IMG/VR virus record: IMGVR_UViG_3300045988_001082
Span: 1 to 6,551 of that record
Origin: a virus
Length of the DNA: 6,551 nt
Direction: 5' to 3' (one strand)
Positions 1 through 6,551 of the stretch are shown piece by piece. Each line of letters opens with the position of its first letter. Within the stretch, counting starts at the first letter, position 1. A program made the position numbers and the translations under genes. Below the pieces are notes generated by a model. That model was not told where the DNA came from. It searched no databases and worked only from the letters and a program-made list of their open reading frames with translations.

Positions 1-36
1 CGCATCAAACGTAGCGTCAAAAATGTTTTGTGCCAT
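1..36 (-). CDS. VP1: Duplicated 5' end (first 12 codons, MAQNIFDATFDA) of the VP1 gene, an artefact of the circular permutation
   Basis: Position 36 corresponds to 6460 (offset 6424). The sequence is identical to the VP1 start region at the other end of the window. Confidence 0.8.
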   Translation of the reverse strand, partial: MAQNIFDATFDA

Positions 37-127
37 TAAATTGAGGTTTAATTGTTAATGAATCTACCTTTTGCTGAGTAGTTTGTTGAGAATCTTGTTT
101 TGAATTAGAATTTTTCCAAAACACAGA
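1..127. repeat. Terminal direct repeat: bases 1-127 are identical to 6425-6551. This is circular-permutation redundancy of a 6424-nt circular genome, not an att site.
   Basis: Direct comparison shows every base of 1-127 equals 6425-6551. The repeat carries the VP1 start codon (36 = 6460) and the 3' end of the 71-aa ORF, so it is coding sequence duplicated by linearising a circle. Confidence 0.9.
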
Positions 128-232
128 CATAGACGCAGTACAAGATTGCACTGTAAGAGCAGTAATCACACCAATAATGAATGTAGAAATAAGCTGTACA
201 AGCTTAATCCACTGGGTAGGAGTAATTTTCAT
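17..232 (-). CDS. Hypothetical small membrane protein, 71 aa, with one predicted transmembrane helix (IKLVQLISTFIIGVITALTV) and a polar Q/S/T-rich C-terminus. Its 3' end overlaps the VP1 start by 20 nt.
   Basis: An ORF in the track. Its start is coupled to the upstream ORF by ATGA. It is the last of the coupled small-ORF chain and ends inside the VP1 5' end (also seen as 6441-6551 at the other end). No homology is recognised. Confidence 0.45.
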   Translation of the reverse strand: MKITPTQWIKLVQLISTFIIGVITALTVQSCTASMSVFWKNSNSKQDSQQTTQQKVDSLTIKPQFNGTKHF

Positions 233-393
233 AATTTTTCAAGAATTAATAAAACATCATAACCTATATTAGCATCCTGCAATAACTTACGAAAACGTTC
301 AGCAGATGAAGGACGGCTAAATATACCAAGACTTATGATAAATTCTTCTTGAAGATTTTCTCTTTTAATGAATTTTACACTAGTTTTATACAT
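229..393 (-). CDS. Hypothetical small protein, 54 aa (MYKTSVKFIKRENLQEEFIISLGIFSRPSSAERFRKLLQDANIGYDVLLILEKL). It is the C-terminal two-thirds of the 92-aa track ORF (229-507), restarted at an internal Met.
   Basis: Its ATG (393-391) lies 1 nt after the TAA of the 59-aa ORF. Its TGA overlaps the next ATG as ATGA (229-232). The alternative model is the full 92-aa ORF, whose N-terminal 38 aa are strongly hydrophobic but overlap the 59-aa ORF out of frame. Confidence 0.35.
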   Translation of the reverse strand: MYKTSVKFIKRENLQEEFIISLGIFSRPSSAERFRKLLQDANIGYDVLLILEKL

Positions 394-394
394 A

Positions 395-574
395 TTAATA
401 CATTTCCTTAAAGAATGAAACATGAAACACATTTTGAGAATTAGATAAACGGCGAGCATAAGCACGAGCGTCATTAATAGACATTTGAGTTTTCTTGCGA
501 TACTCATGAGGCTTCAGTTGGCCAGATTTAGGGTCACGCCAAGCAATTTCAAAAATAAATGTGTATTTATTCAT
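395..574 (-). CDS. Hypothetical small basic protein, 59 aa (MNKYTFIFEIAWRDPKSGQLKPHEYRKKTQMSINDARAYARRLSNSQNVFHVSFFKEMY)
   Basis: The start overlaps the stop of the 57-aa ORF (ATGAATAA). It ends with a TAA that lies 1 nt before the next ATG. The composition is protein-like. It competes with the 92-aa alternate-frame ORF 229-507 in the track. Confidence 0.4.
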   Translation of the reverse strand: MNKYTFIFEIAWRDPKSGQLKPHEYRKKTQMSINDARAYARRLSNSQNVFHVSFFKEMY

Positions 575-739
575 GATACCAATTATTTAATAAAAATTCA
601 GGACATATACCAACAATAGTAGCGCCAGATTTAGAGCTAAAAGCATCAGCAATAGAAATAGCATCCGATAAAGATTCAACGTCAACACGAACATTGTCAT
701 AACCAAGAGTCGAACAATAAAAAATAATATACTTTTTCA
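566..739 (-). CDS. Hypothetical small protein, 57 aa (MKKYIIFYCSTLGYDNVRVDVESLSDAISIADAFSSKSGATIVGICPEFLLNNWYHE). It is below the track cutoff and was found by hand translation.
   Basis: It is the first ATG after an in-frame stop. Its stop overlaps the next ORF's start as ATGAATAA. The composition is protein-like. The coding sense has a TAtcTTTG motif upstream (780-787). Confidence 0.4.
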
Positions 740-779
740 TAACACATAAATTAAATTAGTATTCCTTTTTCTTACACTA

Positions 780-787
780 CAAAGATA
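780..787 (-). promoter_or_regulatory. Candidate Bacteroidetes-type -7 element TAtcTTTG (coding sense), 40 nt upstream of the first small ORF (start at 739), just after the VP4 stop
   Basis: An exact TAnnTTTG match in the 93-nt spacer between the VP4 stop and the small-ORF cassette. No convincing -33 TTTG is present. Confidence 0.25.
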
Positions 788-832
788 AGGATTATATTGT
801 TAATAAAGTGTTAATTGATTATTAAATCTAGC

Positions 833-2188
833 TTAAATCTTCTCTTTTCTATAATGTTTATACATTTTCTCACGAACATCGTAAGAGGCTTTCTTAATAT
901 TAAGCTCTTCACGCATAGCCATACGGGCGTTAATAGCGGCCTGTTGGAGAGCATTCATTTGCAATGATTTTTCATGCTTCAGGACTTGAGAAGAATCAAA
1001 AAACACAAGAGCAGTAGAAAGACAATCAAGCGCATAAGAAAATGCTTTATAATATAGATCCTCATAAACAGTCTGTGAACAGAATTGAGGAAGATAATAT
1101 TTTATGAATGTATCATTTATAACAGTTTTATAAGGGTTATAATACGGAGTTTTGCCAGTCATACGAACGAGGCGAAGATATTCCTCAGGGTAAGTAAACT
1201 TAAACGATAGTTTGTATTGCTTATGAAGATAACGAGCAACTTCAAACCAACGTACAGTATCCTTAAAGTGTTTAATAAAATTAGGGTCATAGCACATTGA
1301 GGTAGAAGGCATAAATTTCATTCGATAGTAACGAGGCAGCATAGTAGTAAGAGATTGACCGGTATATATATTGATAACAGACATATCACATGTATCGGGC
1401 TGTTGTTCATAGAAGGCGCGAAGTTGTTCAGCATAAGCAGAACCAATACCACCGTTTTTGCGAGAAGCAAGCATAAATGTAGGGTTCATACCTTCAGGGG
1501 CACACTCACGTTTACCCATGTATTTCATGACATAATTGATACCACCATTAATAACAGGAACACAATAAGCAAAACCAATAGACCTAGTAACAGGTGATCC
1601 ATCAGGATTGTACTCACCAGTAGGACGACGCCAGCAGCTTTCAATGAGCGTAAGTCGCGAGTATGCGGTTTCGAAGTTATCAGGGAAATTCCATAATATA
1701 ATATGATAGTGAGGACGTTTAGACCAATGTCCGTACTCAGAAACTGCAATATAGCGAAGGTTATGAGAAATACCACGTCTATCCAGTTTAGTACGAAGGC
1801 GTTTAAAAAAGAGTTGGATTTCTTCGGGAAAGACTCCATTTTTCGGTAGATGTTCATTGTTGTAAGTAAGAGTTATAAAATAGGCTTGTTTATTAGAGGT
1901 ATATGATTCACAGAGGGCACGAAATGACCATTGCTGGGCCTTCTTTTCATTACAAAGAGCACATTTGTTACAGGGAACAATCAAAAACATTGGAAATGTT
2001 TCGCCAGTAGCAGGATTTACAATAGTATATTTATCAATATTGTTTTTATTGACATGGTTTTTATTCACATGAAGAACGGAGCCGTGATATACTCCGGAAG
2101 GCATTGTAAACGTACGATACTTTTGTATCAACTTAGAGGCATGTGGATGCCAAATTACTTTCGGGTCTTCGCAGTAGATATTATTCAT
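833..2188 (-). CDS. VP4: Rolling-circle replication initiation protein (VP4; phiX174 gene A superfamily, HUH endonuclease), 451 aa
   Basis: Motif I is FITLTY (aa 104-109, nt 1862-1879). Motif II is HUH, HYHIILW (aa 160-166, nt 1691-1711). Motif III has two catalytic tyrosines, YVMKYMGK (aa 219-223, nt 1520-1534). There is also a CNKCALC (CxxCxxC) cluster at aa 73-79. This is the typical Microviridae Rep architecture. Confidence 0.9.
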   Translation of the reverse strand: MNNIYCEDPKVIWHPHASKLIQKYRTFTMPSGVYHGSVLHVNKNHVNKNNIDKYTIVNPATGETFPMFLIVPCNKCALCNEKKAQQWSFRALCESYTSNKQAYFITLTYNNEHLPKNGVFPEEIQLFFKRLRTKLDRRGISHNLRYIAVSEYGHWSKRPHYHIILWNFPDNFETAYSRLTLIESCWRRPTGEYNPDGSPVTRSIGFAYCVPVINGGINYVMKYMGKRECAPEGMNPTFMLASRKNGGIGSAYAEQLRAFYEQQPDTCDMSVINIYTGQSLTTMLPRYYRMKFMPSTSMCYDPNFIKHFKDTVRWFEVARYLHKQYKLSFKFTYPEEYLRLVRMTGKTPYYNPYKTVINDTFIKYYLPQFCSQTVYEDLYYKAFSYALDCLSTALVFFDSSQVLKHEKSLQMNALQQAAINARMAMREELNIKKASYDVREKMYKHYRKEKI

Positions 2189-2318
2189 AATAAATAGTTT
2201 TAGCGGACGGAAGCCGCACTTTGAGCAAATCGTAACTTTTCCGGTGGAAATAAATCACAGATTTAGAAGGTGTGTCAGTTACTACATACTTATCGAGTTA
2301 CGGCGGTACGATTTTGGA

Positions 2319-2350
2319 ATAAATCGTGAAAAGCCGGGGGACACCCGGCT
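2319..2350 (-). terminator. Candidate intrinsic terminator. A GC-rich hairpin (stem agccggg 2332-2338 with cccggct 2344-2350, 5-nt loop) is followed on the coding strand by TTTTCACGATTTATT.
   Basis: A perfect 7-bp GC-rich stem lies 6 nt after the VP2 stop codon (2356-2358). The T-run is on the minus strand, which is the transcribed sense. It sits between the structural module and the replication gene. The U-tract is short (4 T then C), so confidence is only moderate. Confidence 0.4.
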
Positions 2351-2355
2351 AATCA

Positions 2356-3243
2356 TTAACGGAATCCAATTGGAGACATAGACTTTCCAAGGAAACCACC
2401 TTTTTGCAGAGAAGTTGTAGCACCAGCAAATTGACCAACGGCAAACGAAATAGAATTAATCCAAGTTGTAGCAACATTAGTAGCGCGTTCAGTTGAGTCC
2501 CAGTTTTTAGCCTGATCAAAATTGAATTTAGCATGCTGATTCGAGATATCAATACCCGTTTGTCTGTATAACTCTGTCATAGTCTGTTCACTAGCCAACA
2601 TACCTTGCTTCTTTTGCATATAAGTAGACGCATTCAGGTTCATTACACGAGCCAACTGGGTAGCCATCATGTCTTGCACTTCAGCAGCATTAAGAGCAAT
2701 ACGAGAATTGCTCTCTTTCATCTCCTGATATGTCTTCTTACACAAGAGTTCGAATTCCTGAGAACGCAAGTACCTATCAAATTTCATCTGAACTATCTTC
2801 TCATCTATTTCATGCTGTTGAGACTTCATTGTATTAATACGTTCACGAGCTTCAGCCATGGCAACGTCAATTTCTTGAAGTTTCTTAGCAGCTACTTCAG
2901 CTTCCGCATGATTTAACTGTCCGAGCTCATGATTCACATAGATAGTTGAGTTATTGAGCTCAATATCACTTTCAGTACGAGCCTTACGCAGTAAATAATC
3001 AGCTGTAAGTAAACTTTCTTCAGTATCCGTTTTCTTACTCTGCGATTCAGCAAGACGAGCTTGAGCAGCTTTCAATCCAGTATCAGCAGCAATTTGCGCA
3101 GTCTGTCCGTAAGTATTCGTAGGTATCACATTAAACCGAGGTGTAGGAGCTTGTGCAGGAGCTTCAGGAGCAGTTGCATTTCCTATATCACCACGAGAGT
3201 ACATTAAATCCGGATTTAATCCGGCGTCTTTCAAACGTTGCAT
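2356..3243 (-). CDS. VP2: DNA pilot / minor capsid protein (VP2, H-like), coiled-coil body, 295 aa. It probably continues from the 3231-3506 ORF through a +1 frame change.
   Basis: Long Q/E/K/A-rich predicted coiled-coil (AEAEVAAKKLQEIDVAMAEARERINTMKSQQHEIDEKIVQMKFDRYLRSQEFELL...), as in the H/VP2 pilot proteins. It starts MQRLKDAGLNPDLMY, which I recall as resembling a conserved VP2 block (K-x-AGLNP-x-L-x-Y). In this frame a TAA lies 8 codons upstream of the ATG. Confidence 0.7.
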   Translation of the reverse strand: MQRLKDAGLNPDLMYSRGDIGNATAPEAPAQAPTPRFNVIPTNTYGQTAQIAADTGLKAAQARLAESQSKKTDTEESLLTADYLLRKARTESDIELNNSTIYVNHELGQLNHAEAEVAAKKLQEIDVAMAEARERINTMKSQQHEIDEKIVQMKFDRYLRSQEFELLCKKTYQEMKESNSRIALNAAEVQDMMATQLARVMNLNASTYMQKKQGMLASEQTMTELYRQTGIDISNQHAKFNFDQAKNWDSTERATNVATTWINSISFAVGQFAGATTSLQKGGFLGKSMSPIGFR

Positions 3244-3506
3244 CTGGCAGCAGGTGAATTGTAAGAGTTATTTTTCTCATACATTTGTTCAATCCATTGC
3301 TGTTGTGCGAGACGTTCTTCACGAGCGAATTTACTTTCACGCTCGAATGCTTCAGCGGACTGCTTACGATTACTTTTATTTCCGAAAAAGCTACTGATAG
3401 CAGATATGGCGGCACCTCCGATGCCGCCAATTACTGTACCTAAACCTGGGGAAATAGCGGAACCAAGAGCAGCACCAGAAGCAGCACCAGCACCAACATT
3501 TGCCAT
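3231..3506 (-). CDS. VP2: N-terminal segment of the DNA pilot / minor capsid protein (VP2, phiX174 H-like): a glycine-zipper-rich hydrophobic N-terminus, 91 aa
   Basis: MANVGAGAASGAALGSAISPGLGTVIGGIGGAAISAISSFFG resembles the Gly/Ala-rich transmembrane N-terminus of phiX174 H (MFGAIAGGIASALAGGAMSKLFGGG). The ORF ends 13 nt inside the next ORF, in another frame. Confidence 0.6.
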   Translation of the reverse strand: MANVGAGAASGAALGSAISPGLGTVIGGIGGAAISAISSFFGNKSNRKQSAEAFERESKFAREERLAQQQWIEQMYEKNNSYNSPAARCNV

Positions 3507-3508
3507 AA

Positions 3509-3832
3509 TCAGTTGTTTTGAGGATTAATATACTTATCACCGAATTTCTTCTGACGAAGAACTTGCAGAGCTTTACGCTGGGAAGCTTTTTCCATTTCCC
3601 AGGCAGTAGCCATATCCATATCACGGCGGAATTGAGGATCTATATTCCAAGAGGCATCACCATTAACGTCAATAAAATTTACATTCATAGGTGAAACGGG
3701 AATACCACGTTTTGCCATTTCAGCTACTTGTTGAGGTGTTAAACCTAGATTAGGTTTAGTTCTTTCAAAATCTTTTTGTACATCAAAATTACATTCAACA
3801 GATTTGTAATCCGGTTTTGTATTTCTAGCCAT
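3509..3832 (-). CDS. Hypothetical protein, 107 aa. Its position immediately upstream of the pilot-protein gene makes it a candidate internal scaffolding protein (VP3-like), but this is unproven.
   Basis: An ORF in the track with a balanced, protein-like composition. Its stop is 2 nt before the next start (TGA tt ATG). No Shine-Dalgarno sequence is present. The function is inferred from position only. Confidence 0.5.
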   Translation of the reverse strand: MARNTKPDYKSVECNFDVQKDFERTKPNLGLTPQQVAEMAKRGIPVSPMNVNFIDVNGDASWNIDPQFRRDMDMATAWEMEKASQRKALQVLRQKKFGDKYINPQNN

Positions 3833-3860
3833 AATTGTATAATTTAAAAGTTTACATTAC

Positions 3861-3894
3861 GCAACAAAGTTGCTATTAATTTGCGTTTCACGCA
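3861..3894. other. Two small stem-loops 40-60 nt upstream of the 107-aa ORF start: gcaac-aaa-gttgc (3861-3873) and tgcg-tttca-cgca (3882-3894)
   Basis: A perfect 5-bp and a perfect 4-bp stem read directly from the sequence. Their function is unknown; they might be ssDNA structural signals or an operator. Confidence 0.4.
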
Positions 3895-3932
3895 GAGGGA
3901 AAATACTTTTCCCTTTTAATCTTACGATATTG

Positions 3933-3940
3933 CAAAGGTA
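3933..3940 (-). promoter_or_regulatory. Candidate Bacteroidetes-type -7 promoter element TAccTTTG (coding sense), about 100 nt upstream of the 107-aa ORF. An aTTG lies 21 nt further upstream (weak -33).
   Basis: Matches the TAnnTTTG consensus of Bacteroidetes sigma-A promoters. The -33 TTTG is only partial. No Shine-Dalgarno sequence is present upstream of any gene in the window. Confidence 0.25.
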
Positions 3941-3969
3941 GGTATGTGCGCGCGACAAGTCCAATGAAC

Positions 3970-4033
3970 CTAGTACTAATAATTGATTAAATATTATAAC
4001 AAGGTTCTAATATTTAACAATTATTACTACTAG
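3970..4033. repeat. Imperfect inverted repeat. Arm ctagtactaataattg (3970-3985) pairs with arm caattattactactag (4018-4033) at 15/16 positions. A nested 7-bp inverted repeat, ggttcta (4003-4009) with tagaacc (4031-4037), competes for the second arm.
   Basis: The reverse complement of 4018-4033 is ctagtagtaataattg, one mismatch against 3970-3985. The reverse complement of 4031-4037 equals 4003-4009, and this pairing extends to about 9-10 bp with one bulge. Confidence 0.7.
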
Positions 4034-4097
4034 AACCCTTGGAGCAAGTCACACACACATGCCTTAAAGATGCAATGTCGGAAGAAAAAAGAAAAAA

Positions 4098-4259
4098 TTA
4101 TTTTCTAGGAGTACAGAGCTCATAAACAGCAAGTGAGGCATATTTAGAAGACAAAGACGTGTAATAATCTACCATTTCATCATAAGTCATACATTTAAAT
4201 TCCTCAACAAACGGTTTATAAACATCAATAGAATACCTAAACAAATAATAATTTCTCAT
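4098..4259 (-). CDS. Hypothetical small protein (53 aa: MRNYYLFRYSIDVYKPFVEEFKCMTYDEMVDYYTSLSSKYASLAVYELCTPRK). It is below the 60-aa track cutoff and was found by hand translation.
   Basis: Its ATG overlaps the VP1 stop as TAATG (1-nt overlap at 4259), a classic translational-coupling arrangement. The composition is protein-like and it ends with TAA at 4098-4100. No homology is recognised. Confidence 0.4.
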   Translation of the reverse strand: MRNYYLFRYSIDVYKPFVEEFKCMTYDEMVDYYTSLSSKYASLAVYELCTPRK

Positions 4260-6460
4260 TAGTCCAAACGAGGTATCGCAACACGGCTGATTGGTAATCG
4301 GGCGGTAGCATTAAACTTCACATAACCGAAAATTTTATCCGTGTACTCGGTAACGCTGAATACCTGATTAACCGTATCAGAGTCAACGAGTAAAAACTGT
4401 TGGCCAAGTTGAGGTAATCCGGAGAACACACGAGACATAATGAAATTTTTCATGTTAGTACGGAACAAGCCGTGCGCGCTATCATACTTAGCAACATATT
4501 CATACCATGGACGTTGATAACCGAATGTTTTATTCAATTGATTAGTACTGTCATTTGCAACAATATTCATTGGGCAAATTTCCTTATACGTAACAGGTTG
4601 GAAGCCGATACGGTCAAATTCCGGTTGATAGTGATCTAACAGACCGTTATATATAAAATCTTTAGGCAACAATTGCGTATAAATAGGTACAGGAGTCACA
4701 GTTAACAAACCAATAATATAAGACTCCTCATCACAGAACACTTCAATATTATTAGATGTAGAACCATAAACTCCAGCAATGCCAGTTTTAGAGCCAAGAG
4801 CTTCAGCATACTGTCCTTGAGAAGATGAGCCTTGTTGATCTACTGTTTGCTCAACAGTACGCATAGACAACTCGCGAGAAATACCTCCAATAAATTCAGG
4901 CATGAGAAGTTCATCAAAACGGATGTCAATATCCCAACGACCTTGCATAATCTGTTTGTATGAAAAACCTTTACGCATGTTAAGTTCCAAGAATTTTTGG
5001 TAAGCATTAACATAACGAAGAGTCTCAATAGTAAATCCAGAACCTTGTTCAGTAGCAAGAGCAGCTAATTCGGCATAAGAATTAATAGCAGTCACAGGCG
5101 TTTTTTCTGATACAGGATCATAATCAACACCTACAAGACGCTCACCATCTTCAGACACTTTATAAGATACACCGTATTTAGAGCCATCCTCATCAACAAG
5201 TACAGTTTGCTTTTGTACGGAGTAAGTTCCATCTTCAGAACGGGTAACAACATCACCTACTGTAAGCCCAACAAGAGGAGCATTCGCGCCTTGTTGCGGA
5301 TTCGGAACAGCGGTGGTTAAAAAATCACGTTCCCAATTACATTGATGAAGCTCATATAACGTAGTGTCGGCACCACCTTTCATGGTCGGAAGCCATTTAT
5401 TATAAACGGGACGACCATTAACTATAAATGGATTATTACGTATGTCACGATAATAAGCATTATAAACAGATTCATAAGCGCGAAAACGATAGGCCAACAA
5501 ACGAGGATTATTGGAACGATTTTCAGTAGCAAACGGATACGTACTATACTGCACATCATTTTGCAAAGCATAATACGTGTAAGTTACATTAAAAGAAATA
5601 TTAGCAAAACTAATAGGAGCAGCAGTATTAGGAGCAGTAACAACAACCATTGGGGTACCTTGGATATTACCCAAACTAGACGGGTCAATAGACGAAATAC
5701 TAAAACCGACAACACCATCAGCAGATTTTTTAAACTCAAGGGGTAAATCAAAACTGTAAGAAGCATCATCGGTAAGAAAAACAAAATAACCTCTTGCACC
5801 GTCAAAAACTCCAGATTGTCCACCAGTGAGGGTTACATCTATGCCAACTTGAGAAGTGGTAGAAGGAATAGGATTCGCAGAACCGCCGGTAACAAAAACA
5901 ATAGTTTGAGTACCATTAGTATTCAAAGAAGTAGTGCATACTTGAGAGGGAATACCGTTATTAGCGCGAATACTACTTATAACCTCAGATAAAACGACAT
6001 CCGTAACAGAACGAGAATTAACAGCGCAAGGTTTATCATGTAAAGTAGTAGTTAGAGAAATACGAGTTCCAAACGTAGGTAAACCTAAATAATCGCCTAA
6101 TGAACCAGTCCGACACATTTGATTAAAACGAAATGAATCAGGCAAAATATAAGGTTCTTCCAAATCATCACGGAAATTCGAAATAAAGTCGGAATAGTCT
6201 TCCCACATGGAACGAAGAGTTACCTTGAAGAAATTAAGACGAGCAAACATACGAGTCTGTACAGGAAATACCATAGGCATAAGTTCGAGACCAAACTCGG
6301 GATTAATACGAAGAGAACCTTTAGCAGGAACAAGCTCACAGAACACAGGAGTAATACGACCGAAATTAGTAGTCAAATTGTTCACATGAGACCAATCAAA
6401 TGAATTTACATCAATACGATTATTCGCATCAAACGTAGCGTCAAAAATGTTTTGTGCCAT
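4259..6460 (-). CDS. VP1: Microviridae major capsid protein (VP1, F-protein jelly-roll family), 733 aa
   Basis: A 733-aa ORF in the provided track. The N-terminus (FDWSHVNNLTTNFGRITPVFCELVPAKGSLRINPEFGLELMPMVFPV...ARLNFFKVTLRSMWEDY) matches the conserved microvirus VP1 pattern (SH...FG.I.P.FC.E.LP...L.P.V.P...FFFV..R..W). Its length is typical of the larger-capsid microvirus lineages. The start codon lies inside the terminal repeat; the first 12 codons are also seen at 1-36. Confidence 0.9.
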   Translation of the reverse strand: MAQNIFDATFDANNRIDVNSFDWSHVNNLTTNFGRITPVFCELVPAKGSLRINPEFGLELMPMVFPVQTRMFARLNFFKVTLRSMWEDYSDFISNFRDDLEEPYILPDSFRFNQMCRTGSLGDYLGLPTFGTRISLTTTLHDKPCAVNSRSVTDVVLSEVISSIRANNGIPSQVCTTSLNTNGTQTIVFVTGGSANPIPSTTSQVGIDVTLTGGQSGVFDGARGYFVFLTDDASYSFDLPLEFKKSADGVVGFSISSIDPSSLGNIQGTPMVVVTAPNTAAPISFANISFNVTYTYYALQNDVQYSTYPFATENRSNNPRLLAYRFRAYESVYNAYYRDIRNNPFIVNGRPVYNKWLPTMKGGADTTLYELHQCNWERDFLTTAVPNPQQGANAPLVGLTVGDVVTRSEDGTYSVQKQTVLVDEDGSKYGVSYKVSEDGERLVGVDYDPVSEKTPVTAINSYAELAALATEQGSGFTIETLRYVNAYQKFLELNMRKGFSYKQIMQGRWDIDIRFDELLMPEFIGGISRELSMRTVEQTVDQQGSSSQGQYAEALGSKTGIAGVYGSTSNNIEVFCDEESYIIGLLTVTPVPIYTQLLPKDFIYNGLLDHYQPEFDRIGFQPVTYKEICPMNIVANDSTNQLNKTFGYQRPWYEYVAKYDSAHGLFRTNMKNFIMSRVFSGLPQLGQQFLLVDSDTVNQVFSVTEYTDKIFGYVKFNATARLPISRVAIPRLD

Positions 6461-6551
6461 TAAATTGAGGTTTAATTGTTAATGAATCTACCTTTTGCTG
6501 AGTAGTTTGTTGAGAATCTTGTTTTGAATTAGAATTTTTCCAAAACACAGA

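Follow-up and report, generated by a model that had tools for sequence, protein, structure and literature searches.

A conserved hairpin on the packaged strand of a Bacteroides gut microvirus is a candidate single-stranded DNA promoter

The window analyzed here, the whole stretch of 6,551 nucleotides (positions 1 to 6,551) of IMG/VR record IMGVR_UViG_3300045988_001082, belongs to a Bacteroides-infecting gut microvirus and carries on its minus strand, at positions 4105-3861, the most conserved part of the genome. We tentatively propose that this cis-element holds a host promoter in a hairpin, at which the host would start copying the incoming strand and from which it would later transcribe the downstream genes. 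The narrower form of this proposal, in which the hairpin would be a Bacteroidetes-type (-33/-7, sigma-ABfr) single-stranded DNA (ssDNA) promoter that primes complementary-strand synthesis, is put forward with slightly more reserve. Such promoters are stem-loops that the host RNA polymerase recognizes and from which the complementary strand can be primed (PMC11541004; bioRxiv 10.64898/2026.01.09.698686), and a tentative link to minus-strand initiation has been made for conserved hairpins of other microvirus clades that show compensatory changes (PMC9865509). In the mammalian gut, few phages are more abundant than the microviruses related to Bacteroidales proviruses, yet almost none of these microviruses has been cultured and their cis-acting sites are undefined. 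The element is a concrete candidate for ssDNA-to-duplex conversion in Bacteroides.

The minus strand of the window is the viral strand, i.e., the gene-coding, packaged strand with mRNA polarity. In the ssDNA minimum-free-energy fold, the larger part of the element forms a single imperfect hairpin of 207 nt and 82 bp (Table 1), the first position of which overlaps the stop codon of a 53-aa ORF. A 251-nt stretch folded at -56.2 kcal/mol as compared with -19.3 +/- 3.1 kcal/mol for shuffled sequences (z = -11.8), and a genome-wide ranking of GC-corrected folding energies placed the hairpin as the strongest ssDNA structure of the genome (-32 kcal/mol per 150 nt; mean, -11.8 +/- 4.5). A previous sequence-only reading had described the region as the only long non-coding stretch of the genome. 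It is indeed the longest, but not the only one, as further non-coding stretches lie at 2189-2355 (167 nt) and 741-832 (92 nt). No ORF of at least 40 aa was found on either strand of the region, and tRNA and tmRNA scans of it returned nothing. Coding potential was rejected; the only ORFs had at most 35 aa with TTG or ATG starts, and close relatives differed by frameshifting indels of 1-2 nt.

Table 1. Features of the element and their positions in the 6,551-nt window.
Feature	Position	Strand	Remarks
Long imperfect hairpin	3899..4105	-	5' arm ~4105-4009, apex ~4008-3996, 3' arm ~3995-3899
Polypyrimidine tract TTTTTTCTTTTTTCTTCC, base of the 5' arm	4080..4097	-	Varies hardly at all among 63 homologs; partner AAGATTAAAAGGGAAAAG in the 3' arm
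(TG)5, (CA)5 on the + strand	4050..4059	-	5' half of the putative promoter-spacer duplex; partner 3956-3945
GTCGCGCGCACA, containing GCGCGCG	3945..3956	-	3' partner of (TG)5
GTTCATTGG with -33-like ATTG	3961..3969	-	Invariant or nearly so in 63 homologs; paired with invariant CCAAGGGTT (4042-4034)
TACCTTTGC, putative -7 box	3932..3940	-	Perfect TANNTTTGY match; core ACCTT (3939-3935) in internal loop
Local hairpin AGGGAAAA-GTA-TTTTCCCT	3896..3914	-	Perfect 8-bp repeat
Mini-hairpin 2, GCGT-GAA-ACGC	3883..3893	-	Invariant in 63 homologs; invariant CTG just before
Mini-hairpin 3, GCAAC-TNT-GTTGC	3861..3873	-	Closing C-G replaced by T-A in 10 homologs; middle loop base variable

The individual features that the sequence-only reading had listed were all found again, namely GCGCGCG (3948-3954), the (CA)5 run, two small hairpins within 3861-3894 and an inverted repeat matching at 15 of 16 positions (3970-3985 with 4018-4033). 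The repeats are nevertheless not separate features but the inner part of the 207-nt hairpin, and (CA)5 and GCGCGCG pair with each other via G·T wobbles. In this duplex, G-C pairs alternate with T·G, and columns 61-70 covary with columns 173-182. A third perfect hairpin, the local hairpin of Table 1, had been missed; it and the base of the long hairpin cannot form at the same time, and it pairs in 97.8% of cells and shows compensatory changes in four pairs. Both mini-hairpins lie 3' of the long hairpin on the viral strand and have 3-nt loops, and the apex loop of the long hairpin is CTT, TTC or TTTC among homologs. GNA and TNT triloops are typical of very stable DNA mini-hairpins and not of selected RNA hairpins; the small hairpins of the element, with their GTA, GAA, and TNT loops, are presumably of this DNA type, a point to which we give little weight.

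We identified 63 distinct homologs of the element; consensus folds were computed on 25 and on all 63 of them, and a profile of the 63 sequences was sufficient for nhmmer searches of the loci. Across the 63 homologs, 98.8% of cells paired versus 37-46% in slid controls, with compensatory changes in 32 of 61 pairs, a level reached by none of 500 shuffles. Missing conservation or covariation of the paired arms in relatives had been named beforehand as counting against a structured functional non-coding locus; both turned out to be very strong, which supports such a locus. The same cannot be said of the two mutually exclusive stem-loops that had been suggested. Although an alternative pairing at 9 of 10 positions (4003-4012 with 4028-4037) does exist, the two stem-loops had no covariation support and broke in divergent homologs: the first alternative stem paired in 85% of cells, only in the clade of the window itself and with two compensatory cells, and the second in 66%, no better than shuffles. 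The viral strand folded more stably than its complement in 63/63 homologs, and 381 G·T cells, a number that could be exaggerated by the C-to-T bias with which ssDNA genomes mutate, were observed versus 4 A·C cells. Selection maintains the structure on the packaged, mRNA-sense strand alone.

The hairpin region folded with equal significance as RNA (z = -11.9) and, the viral strand being mRNA-sense, covariation and G·T bias cannot separate an ssDNA from an RNA structure. Size, covariation and G·U tolerance are all RNA-like, as would be expected if the phage encoded a free-standing structured non-coding RNA with a regulatory or anti-defence role. We consider such an RNA very improbable, since no Rfam covariance model matched the element on either strand at up to E = 1, the hairpin is rod-like without hallmarks of tertiary structure and its small hairpins have triloops. 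Moreover, the sole promoter-like motif lies inside the 3' arm, so its transcript cannot contain the hairpin.

The element is better conserved than the coding sequence that surrounds it. While capsid and Rep identity of the carriers goes down to 20-40%, the element remains at least 61% identical and retains invariant blocks; it was 91% identical in one relative (genome 76%) and 82% in another (genome 74%), and it was also present in genomes otherwise devoid of nucleotide similarity to the window. It usually follows the capsid gene, but in Dulem virus 256, bajarodmic 849, bajarodmic 585, and L052 it stands directly upstream of Rep. Its orientation relative to the genes is constant in all contexts. 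About half of the related genomes are without it; in these, the spacer behind the capsid gene contains a short (CG)n/(TG)n hairpin and no -7 box. In the genome L090, a long but non-homologous hairpin is present that lacks a canonical -7 box, a divergent copy in L113 has TTCCTTTG in place of TAnnTTTG, and in L120 a different hairpin, CCGGCGTATGCCGG, occupies the place of mini-hairpin 2. When the element was compared by blastn with 72,556 plasmids, only short AT-rich chance matches and no plasmid homologs were obtained. A second conserved piece in a genome-wide blastn (84-200) was the coding sequence of a small membrane protein rather than a second non-coding element.

Both putative promoter boxes are located on the 3' arm, in apex-to-base order. 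As judged from the published Bacteroidetes -33/-7 consensus (PMC7366714, PMC12632263), TAYCTTTGC matches the primary-sigma -7 box TANNTTTGY, and it is kept as TAYCTTTG in the 63 homologs. The -33-like box is ATTG, not TTTG, so the full pattern TTTG-N15-25-TAnnTTTG had no match in the window; the short motif TANNTTTG had 11 matches in the window versus approximately 8 expected by chance. The distance from ATTG to the -7 box is 21 nt in 55/63 homologs and 20 nt in the other 8, and the spacer is thus constant in length and covarying in sequence, whereas the apical stem varies in length. In the predicted fold, TTGG of the -33-like box is paired (probability of being unpaired at most 0.02) and the -7 core is open (0.8-0.94). 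Opposite the core is the non-conserved TCTTTA (4070-4065), and the side facing the -7 box was complementary to it in 0/63 homologs; the 5' side of this loop carries 1.13 bits per column compared with 1.66 for the 3' side. With the boxes ordered from apex to base on the 3' arm, the ssDNA itself would be the template, through its 5' arm, and the transcript would leave via the base. The element resembles an ssDNA promoter in having a stable long hairpin on the strand that is single-stranded in the cell, in the use of ssDNA as template with a transcript exiting the hairpin and, as far as sequence and predicted fold tell, in a duplexed upstream box followed by a mismatched downstream box. Four functions had been suggested from the sequence alone. 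Complementary-strand origin and promoter fit best because the structure is specific to the packaged strand and a host-type motif lies in the expected arm and orientation; a Rep nick site is disfavored and a packaging signal is without support. Conservation was equally high outside the boxes, with 1.7-1.9 bits per column in the basal arms and the two mini-hairpins, which implies that the element must have other sequence-specific functions. Bacteroidetes do not use -35/-10 boxes, and a sigma-70-type TTGTTA-16-TATAAT (4020-3993, minus strand) was rejected as a lineage-specific chance match, the apex being different in divergent homologs.

The same boxes could serve a transcription-unit boundary that acts only at the RNA level and in the replicative form, the ssDNA form having no role. 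The hairpin at the 3' end of the capsid mRNA would then be a terminator, an RNase III site or a stabilizer, and the conserved 3' arm would merely carry the promoter and leader of the next operon. We regard this as unlikely, although not negligibly so. In every context the element begins at or within a few bases of the upstream gene's stop codon, and in the element-less relatives the capsid stop is immediately followed by the (CG)n/(TG)n hairpin, which is rich in GC and has wobbles compatible with G·U. The -7 box fits the consensus, the local hairpin, which can form only in promoter-initiated RNA, is also maintained, and the RNA fold is as significant as the DNA fold. Against these points, a stem of approximately 95 bp across a promoter far exceeds what any terminator needs, and an intrinsic-terminator scan of the minus strand predicted no site at the long hairpin, the stem of which is followed by CCCTCTGCG without a T-run. 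A boundary also leaves unexplained why the side opposite the -7 box is never complementary in 63 homologs, why the polypyrimidine 5' arm is invariant and why invariant blocks persist in phages whose proteins share only 20-40% identity and whose upstream genes differ. Bacteroidetes terminators may depart from the consensus, and a terminator-like effect of the long hairpin is possible.

The known complementary-strand origins of microviruses, those of phiX174 and G4, use a primosome or primase and not RNA polymerase, which counts against the promoter model; the G4 origin consists of hairpins and a CTG start. An origin of this type, for the host primase or the PriA primosome, would use the hairpins as SSB-free landmarks, and the promoter motif would be independent or coincidental. 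In its favor, a conserved structure dominates the packaged strand and is specific to it, and an invariant CTG (3895-3893) adjoins the two invariant mini-hairpins (3895-3861) in the 63-homolog alignment. The position after the capsid gene is also that found in phiX174 and G4 (PMC9865509). We still judge this origin type improbable, as the constant spacing of 20-21 nt and the arrangement of a duplexed -33 box with an unpaired -7 box would go unexplained. Furthermore, the L113 copy has neither mini-hairpin 2 nor 3, and hairpin 2 is replaced in L120.

The Rep nick site is probably elsewhere than in the element. The pilot-Rep spacer contains at 2299-2273 (minus strand) a motif similar to the phiX174 origin, TAACTCG|ATAAGTATGTAGTAACTGACAC, of the form AACTYGATA...AACTGACA; the phiX174 motif (CAACTTG|ATA...) was verified in NC_001422. 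The nick is predicted to fall between 2294 and 2293 on the minus strand. AACTYGATA-N6-16-AACTRACA was present in 84 of 119 loci, including relatives without the element, and AACTYGATA had a single match in the window (2299-2291) and none within 3833-4105. By comparison with this much better motif, AATTAATAGCAAC of the element is only loosely like the AT-rich part of the phiX174 origin. The element does stand directly upstream of Rep in Dulem-256-type genomes, but the Rep proteins of its carriers are only 24% identical, which is unexpected for a Rep-specific site, and we know of no microvirus packaging signal. Hence, we give very little credence to the element being the plus-strand origin nicked by Rep or a packaging signal.

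A scan of bacterial genomes for the exact pattern of the element yielded nothing, the pattern being too strict, but a protein-based scan led to Bacteroides prophages, one of them with the element. Related prophages with an intact element are found in Bacteroides chromosomes as L079 (Bacteroides sp. f07, NZ_BAABXI010000001.1; prophage at about 7107-13574 of L079) and L048 (beside gyrA and batD). Microvirus proviruses of Bacteroidetes have dif-like sites on either side and no integrase gene of their own (PMC3091885), and CTX-phi integrates via a hairpin of its own ssDNA genome, so that the element could be conceived as a folded ssDNA attachment site for XerC/D integration. Such a role is hardly credible here. 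The element is whole and internal in both L048 and L079, between the capsid and 107-aa genes, which refutes the attP/dif reading for both prophages. In addition, L079 has flanking 20-nt dif-like direct repeats 6468 nt apart, the right-hand one of which lies in a different spacer, 25 nt after the Rep stop.

For the promoter reading, we infer RNA polymerase binding, priming, promoter activity and start sites as follows. In the injected ssDNA genome, the element would fold into an imperfect hairpin of roughly 95 bp that rebuilds a host promoter as duplex, with the -33-like ATTG base-paired, the 20-21-nt spacer held as a covarying duplex and the -7 box TAYCTTTGC unpaired in the internal loop of the 3' arm, the arm that would not be used as template. 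Host RNA polymerase carrying the primary sigma factor may bind this pre-melted promoter and transcribe the pyrimidine-rich 5' arm in the outward direction, past the hairpin base. From the polypyrimidine tract it would make a purine-rich RNA that is complementary to the viral strand and would prime complementary-strand synthesis; this primer is predicted to start opposite ~4075-4079 and to correspond to the plus strand of the window from there upward (AAUGUCGGAAGAAAAAAG...). In the double-stranded replicative form, the same boxes would work as a conventional promoter and drive the genes that lie downstream, i.e., those for the 107-aa protein, pilot, and Rep in the window and Rep in Dulem-256-type genomes. 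The sense RNA would start near 3929-3926, and its leader would fold into the local hairpin 3914-3896 and the two mini-hairpins.

If this is true, Microviridae would gain their first origin primed by RNA polymerase and Bacteroidota their first described ssDNA promoter, and the element would be a host-adapted cassette moved between microvirus lineages down to 20% capsid identity. Together with the nick motif and the dif-like site after Rep, it would complete the cis-element map of this Bacteroides microvirus group. ssDNA promoters, so far a matter of proteobacterial plasmids and filamentous phages, would be extended to a phylum with a different promoter grammar. The element could also be used as a nucleotide marker by which metagenomic microviruses are assigned to hosts and as a required part for resurrecting these phages or building Bacteroides ssDNA vectors.

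Among known systems, the phiX174 primosome assembly site and G4 ori-c belong to the same virus family and are likewise intergenic hairpins after the capsid gene, recognized by host replication proteins. However, they are short hairpins (44-140 nt) for PriA or DnaG rather than RNA polymerase, have no promoter motif and share no sequence similarity with the element. The hairpins of reekeekee- and roodoodoo-microviruses are, like the element, metagenomic, conserved in nucleotide sequence, marked by compensatory substitutions and tentatively linked to negative-strand initiation, but they measure 13-64 nt, lie between other genes and carry no promoter motif (PMC9865509), whereas the element has 207 nt and host promoter boxes and is common to very divergent lineages and contexts. 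ssoA of rolling-circle plasmids is also a long imperfect, orientation- and host-specific hairpin, exchanged as a cassette between unrelated replicons and using an RNA polymerase primer, as proposed here. Its primer runs towards the loop, whereas the geometry of the element points out through the base; the ssoA hallmarks RSB and CS-6 (TAGCGT) are absent from the element, with no TAGCGT at the apex in any homolog. At the f1/M13 minus-strand origin, intergenic hairpins on the packaged strand mimic a promoter and the host RNA polymerase makes the primer, which is what we propose for the element. f1/M13 differ in phage family, host phylum and sequence, and they have two adjacent hairpins where the element has a single one of 207 nt.

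Frpo/ssi of the F plasmid (Masai and Arai, 1997; PMC11541004; bioRxiv 10.64898/2026.01.09.698686) has no sequence similarity to the element, and its boxes are TTGACA/TATAAT instead of the Bacteroidetes -33/-7 type. As the phage strand is mRNA-sense, RNA made from the single-stranded element could only be a primer and never a messenger. The boxes of the element, given their good consensus match, should also work in double-stranded DNA, while Frpo is reportedly inactivated by conversion to double-stranded DNA. Yet Frpo/ssi and the element are both long imperfect hairpins on the strand that enters the cell single-stranded, with host primary-sigma boxes rebuilt in the stem; in both, the ssDNA would be the template beyond the hairpin and the transcripts could prime the complementary strand, as is predicted here for the element.

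Folding the - strand of positions 4107-3857 as ssDNA gave a single imperfect hairpin of 207 nt (4105-3899, 82 bp) followed by two mini-hairpins, with a fold energy of -56.2 kcal/mol as compared with -19.3 ± 3.1 in shuffles (z = -11.8). No other ssDNA structure in the genome is as strong as this element (4105-3861), which departs from the GC-corrected mean of 150-nt windows by about 5 SD. The features listed in the sequence-only reading, which had proposed region 3833-4097 as a candidate origin or packaging locus, were all found at the coordinates it gave; they are not separate, however, but parts of one hairpin object. Its 15/16 inverted repeat is the inner stem of the long hairpin, and its (CA)5 run (4059-4050; (TG)5 when read on the viral strand) forms a duplex with the GCGCGC tract at 3956-3945, in which G-C pairs alternate with T·G pairs. 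A third perfect hairpin, which it had overlooked, can form in place of the base of the long hairpin. No ORF of note, Rfam match or tRNA was found in the region, which is the longest non-coding stretch of the genome but not the only one, 2189-2355 and 741-832 being non-coding as well.

The window covers essentially the whole of a circular microvirus genome, with terminal redundancy from circular assembly (1-120 = 6432-6551) and a real length of about 6.43 kb. All its genes lie on the - strand, and its nearest records are faecal microviruses from rodents, tortoises and lemurs. Microviridae package the strand of mRNA polarity; the viral strand is therefore the reverse complement of the window. 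The true length of a 71-aa ORF, whose stop overlaps the capsid start in TAATG, is about 65 aa. The pilot gene consists of overlapping ORFs of 91 and 295 aa (3231-3506 and 2356-3243, - strand), compared with one ORF of about 383 aa in relatives; the window genome has a frameshift here or else was misread in sequencing. The 53-aa ORF is found in a few relatives only (L041, L044, L057, L068 and, as a divergent copy, L113; L numbers denote the related loci compared with the window), and in most genomes the element starts directly 3' of the capsid stop codon.

Features of the window, with coordinates in the direction of the strand given
Feature	Position	Strand	Remark
Major capsid protein	6460-4259	-	
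53-aa ORF	4259-4098	-	between capsid gene and element; without family match
Non-coding region holding the element		-	between 53-aa ORF and 107-aa gene
Third perfect hairpin	3914-3896	-	AGGGAAAA-GTA-TTTTCCCT
Mini-hairpin 2	3893-3883	-	GCGT-GAA-ACGC; one of the "two short hairpins" of the sequence-only reading
Mini-hairpin 3	3873-3861	-	GCAAC-TTT-GTTGC; the other of these two
107-aa protein	3832-3509	-	
DNA pilot protein	3506-2356	-	two ORFs in the window
Candidate Rep nick site	2299-2273	-	TAACTCG/ATAAGTATGTAGTAACTGACAC; in pilot-Rep spacer 2189-2355
Rep	2188-833	-	
Small ORFs (n = 4)		-	

Pattern scans of IMG/VR and metagenome contigs yielded a total of 63 distinct copies of the element, one per genome. 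In the 63-sequence alignment, the 61 pairs of the long hairpin and the two mini-hairpins were standard in 98.8% of cells, versus 37-46% with partners slid by 1-3 columns. Both sides had changed at 32 of these pairs (271 cells), and none of 500 shuffles reached any covariation measure. Covariation of the paired arms, which the sequence-only reading had named as a check, is thus strong for the long hairpin; its two competing stem-loops had no covariation support and are broken in divergent homologs. Whole segments covary in the divergent copies L113, where basal GCGCTAC pairs with GTAGCG, and L120, where GAGAATG pairs with GGATTCTC and hairpin 2 is replaced by a different hairpin at the same place. 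The local hairpin 3914-3896 is also kept (97.8% of cells paired, compensatory changes at four pairs), so that the basal 3' arm has two conserved, mutually exclusive partners.

G·T cells numbered 381 against four A·C cells, and the viral strand was more stably folded than its complement in 63 of 63 homologs. The structure is under selection on one strand only, which rules out a double-stranded cruciform as well as a function on the complementary strand. The C-to-T mutation bias of ssDNA genomes may contribute to the G·T excess. The packaged strand thus carries a conserved, covarying, strand-specific hairpin. Since the viral strand is mRNA-sense, an RNA-level structure would account equally well for the covariation and the G·T bias, for example a hairpin at the 3' end of the capsid mRNA with a downstream promoter.

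The invariant 3'-arm block CCTAYCTTTGCAAT includes TAYCTTTGC (3940-3932, - strand), a perfect match to the -7 box TAnnTTTG(Y) of the Bacteroidetes primary sigma factor (consensus from PMC7366714 and PMC12632263), a short motif with 11 matches in the window versus about 8 expected. The invariant GTTCATTGG (3969-3961) places ATTG where the -33 TTTG would stand, 21 nt upstream of the -7 box in 55 copies and 20 nt in 8, and L113 and L120 also have the 21-nt spacing. This spacer is constant in length and covarying in sequence, and the apical stem length differs by more than 10 nt. In the ssDNA ensemble the -33 TTGG is paired (P(unpaired) ≤0.02) and the -7 core AYCTT unpaired (P(unpaired) 0.8-0.94); conservation within the element is lowest on the loop side facing this core (1.13 vs. 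1.66 bits per column). Host-type promoter boxes are thus predicted at fixed spacing, the -33 duplexed and the -7 in a conserved bubble. The basal arms and mini-hairpins are equally highly conserved, so that more than a promoter must be encoded.

Both boxes lie on the 3' arm in apex-to-base order, so the 5' arm, an invariant polypyrimidine tract (4097-4080) plus CGACATTGCA, would be the template if RNA polymerase used the folded ssDNA. Such an RNA, complementary to the viral strand, would exit via the hairpin base and enter the end of the gene upstream. In the modelled fold, this arrangement is what an ssDNA promoter would need in order to prime complementary-strand synthesis. The minus origin of f1/M13 is likewise an ssDNA promoter priming the complementary strand. 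Frpo is another such promoter (PMC11541004; bioRxiv 10.64898/2026.01.09.698686).

After injection, the hairpin would be the main duplex remaining on the SSB-coated genome, and RNA polymerase holoenzyme could bind it as a pre-opened promoter. Transcription of the pyrimidine-rich arm, starting opposite ~4075-4079, would yield a purine-rich RNA priming the complementary strand. Once the genome is in the replicative form, these boxes would drive sense transcription from ~3929-3926 into the genes for the 107-aa protein, the pilot protein and Rep, and the local hairpin and both mini-hairpins would form in the leader of this transcript. The balance tips slightly towards the hairpin being a complementary-strand origin, whatever the priming route. 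The full model, an RNA-polymerase ssDNA promoter and primer that doubles as replicative-form promoter, draws on motifs and predicted folds and is put forward tentatively.

The orientation of the boxes makes the ssDNA the template, and a Bacteroides host fits the ssDNA-promoter reading. Related prophages reside in Bacteroides chromosomes: L079, a prophage of Bacteroides sp. f07, has an intact element right after the capsid gene, and a prophage with this layout sits between gyrA and batD on L048, a contig from a gut metagenome. From such relatives we infer the host of the window's own virus. The element is ruled out as an attachment site, since it is intact in the middle of both prophages and the dif-like repeats of L079 lie elsewhere. 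These 20-nt direct repeats, ACATAATAATGATTATTCCC and ACATTATAATGATTATTCCC, flank the prophage (7087-7106 and 13555-13574, 6468 nt apart), the right-hand one 25 nt past the Rep stop, in agreement with Krupovic and Forterre (PMC3091885). A similar dif-like ACAATATAATCCTTATCTTTG lies 33 nt past the Rep stop in the window (780-800, - strand), overlapping a second TAnnTTTG match (787-780). On L042 (5417-12139), a 12.5-kb low-coverage contig, a microvirus genome that breaks off within the capsid gene adjoins ftsK, bacA, clpP and a GH94 gene of bacterial origin; the contig is either a degraded prophage or a chimeric assembly.

The element is conserved above its flanking genes, its region being 91% identical in bajarodmic virus 65 (genome 76%) and 82% in tortoise microvirus 1 (genome 74%). 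It is also present in Dulem virus 256 and bajarodmic viruses 849 and 585, which have almost no other nucleotide similarity to the window and carry it directly upstream of Rep instead of after the capsid gene, with its gene-relative orientation kept. Among carriers, capsid identity goes down to 20-42% and Rep identity to 24-38%; the element retains at least 61% nucleotide identity and long invariant blocks. Its presence in genomes with very different Rep proteins is as expected for a host-dependent rather than Rep-dependent site. About half of the capsid-related genomes lack it. Such relatives (L078, L080, L088, L092, L094-L105, L110, L111, L115, L118, L121) have a short alternating (CG)n/(TG)n hairpin immediately 3' of the capsid stop (e.g., CGCGCGCGCGC-TTC-GTGTGTGCG), and no -7 box was found in its spacer. 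The same alternating tract, always purine-pyrimidine, also occurs in the element, at the apex in divergent copies and mid-stem in the window. In L090 the site after the capsid gene is taken by a non-homologous hairpin of 230 nt. In most relatives an additional ~70 nt follow mini-hairpin 3 (GCGTCAGGGATTGAAGCGAAAATCC...GCCCGCCCGGACGCCC; e.g., L001 ~1520-1620); this segment would fall between window 3861 and 3833 and is absent in the window, L010, L041, L047 and L054; its GCGTTAGGGATTGCAGGCGAGTAT block also stands 3' of the long hairpin of L090. The product of the gene directly preceding the capsid gene, a small membrane protein (window 36-232, - strand; L052 3447-3644), is 61% identical between the window and L052, with capsid proteins only 20% identical; this protein and the hairpin element are the two modules common to these otherwise unrelated microviruses.

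The hairpin region, for which a Rep nick site had also been considered, is probably not that site, as a phiX174-like motif sits in the pilot-Rep spacer, including in relatives without the element. The first nine bases of this motif match the phiX174 origin CAACTTG/ATA... (longer form CAACTTG/ATATTAATAAC), verified in NC_001422, where it is annotated at 4306. The pattern AACTYGATA-N6-16-AACTRACA occurred in 84 of 119 loci, each time upstream of Rep and on the coding strand, and window 2268-2335 is 85-87% conserved in genomes about 68% identical overall. By this likeness, the motif is the probable Rep nick site. A hairpin, CACGATTT-ATTCC-AAAATCGT, precedes it.

In the searchable literature we found neither this element nor any hairpin or origin described for Alpavirinae-like microviruses, and blastn against 72,556 plasmids gave no homolog. 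Two other microvirus clades have short conserved hairpins, which are the closest precedent (PMC9865509). The element makes the start of replication directly testable in a very abundant, uncultured phage group. Judging from its motifs and modelled fold, its function would belong to the known class of single-strand origins and ssDNA promoters. Sequence-level membership tests place it in neither Frpo nor ssoA, and it differs from the known members of this class in promoter grammar, host phylum and virus family.
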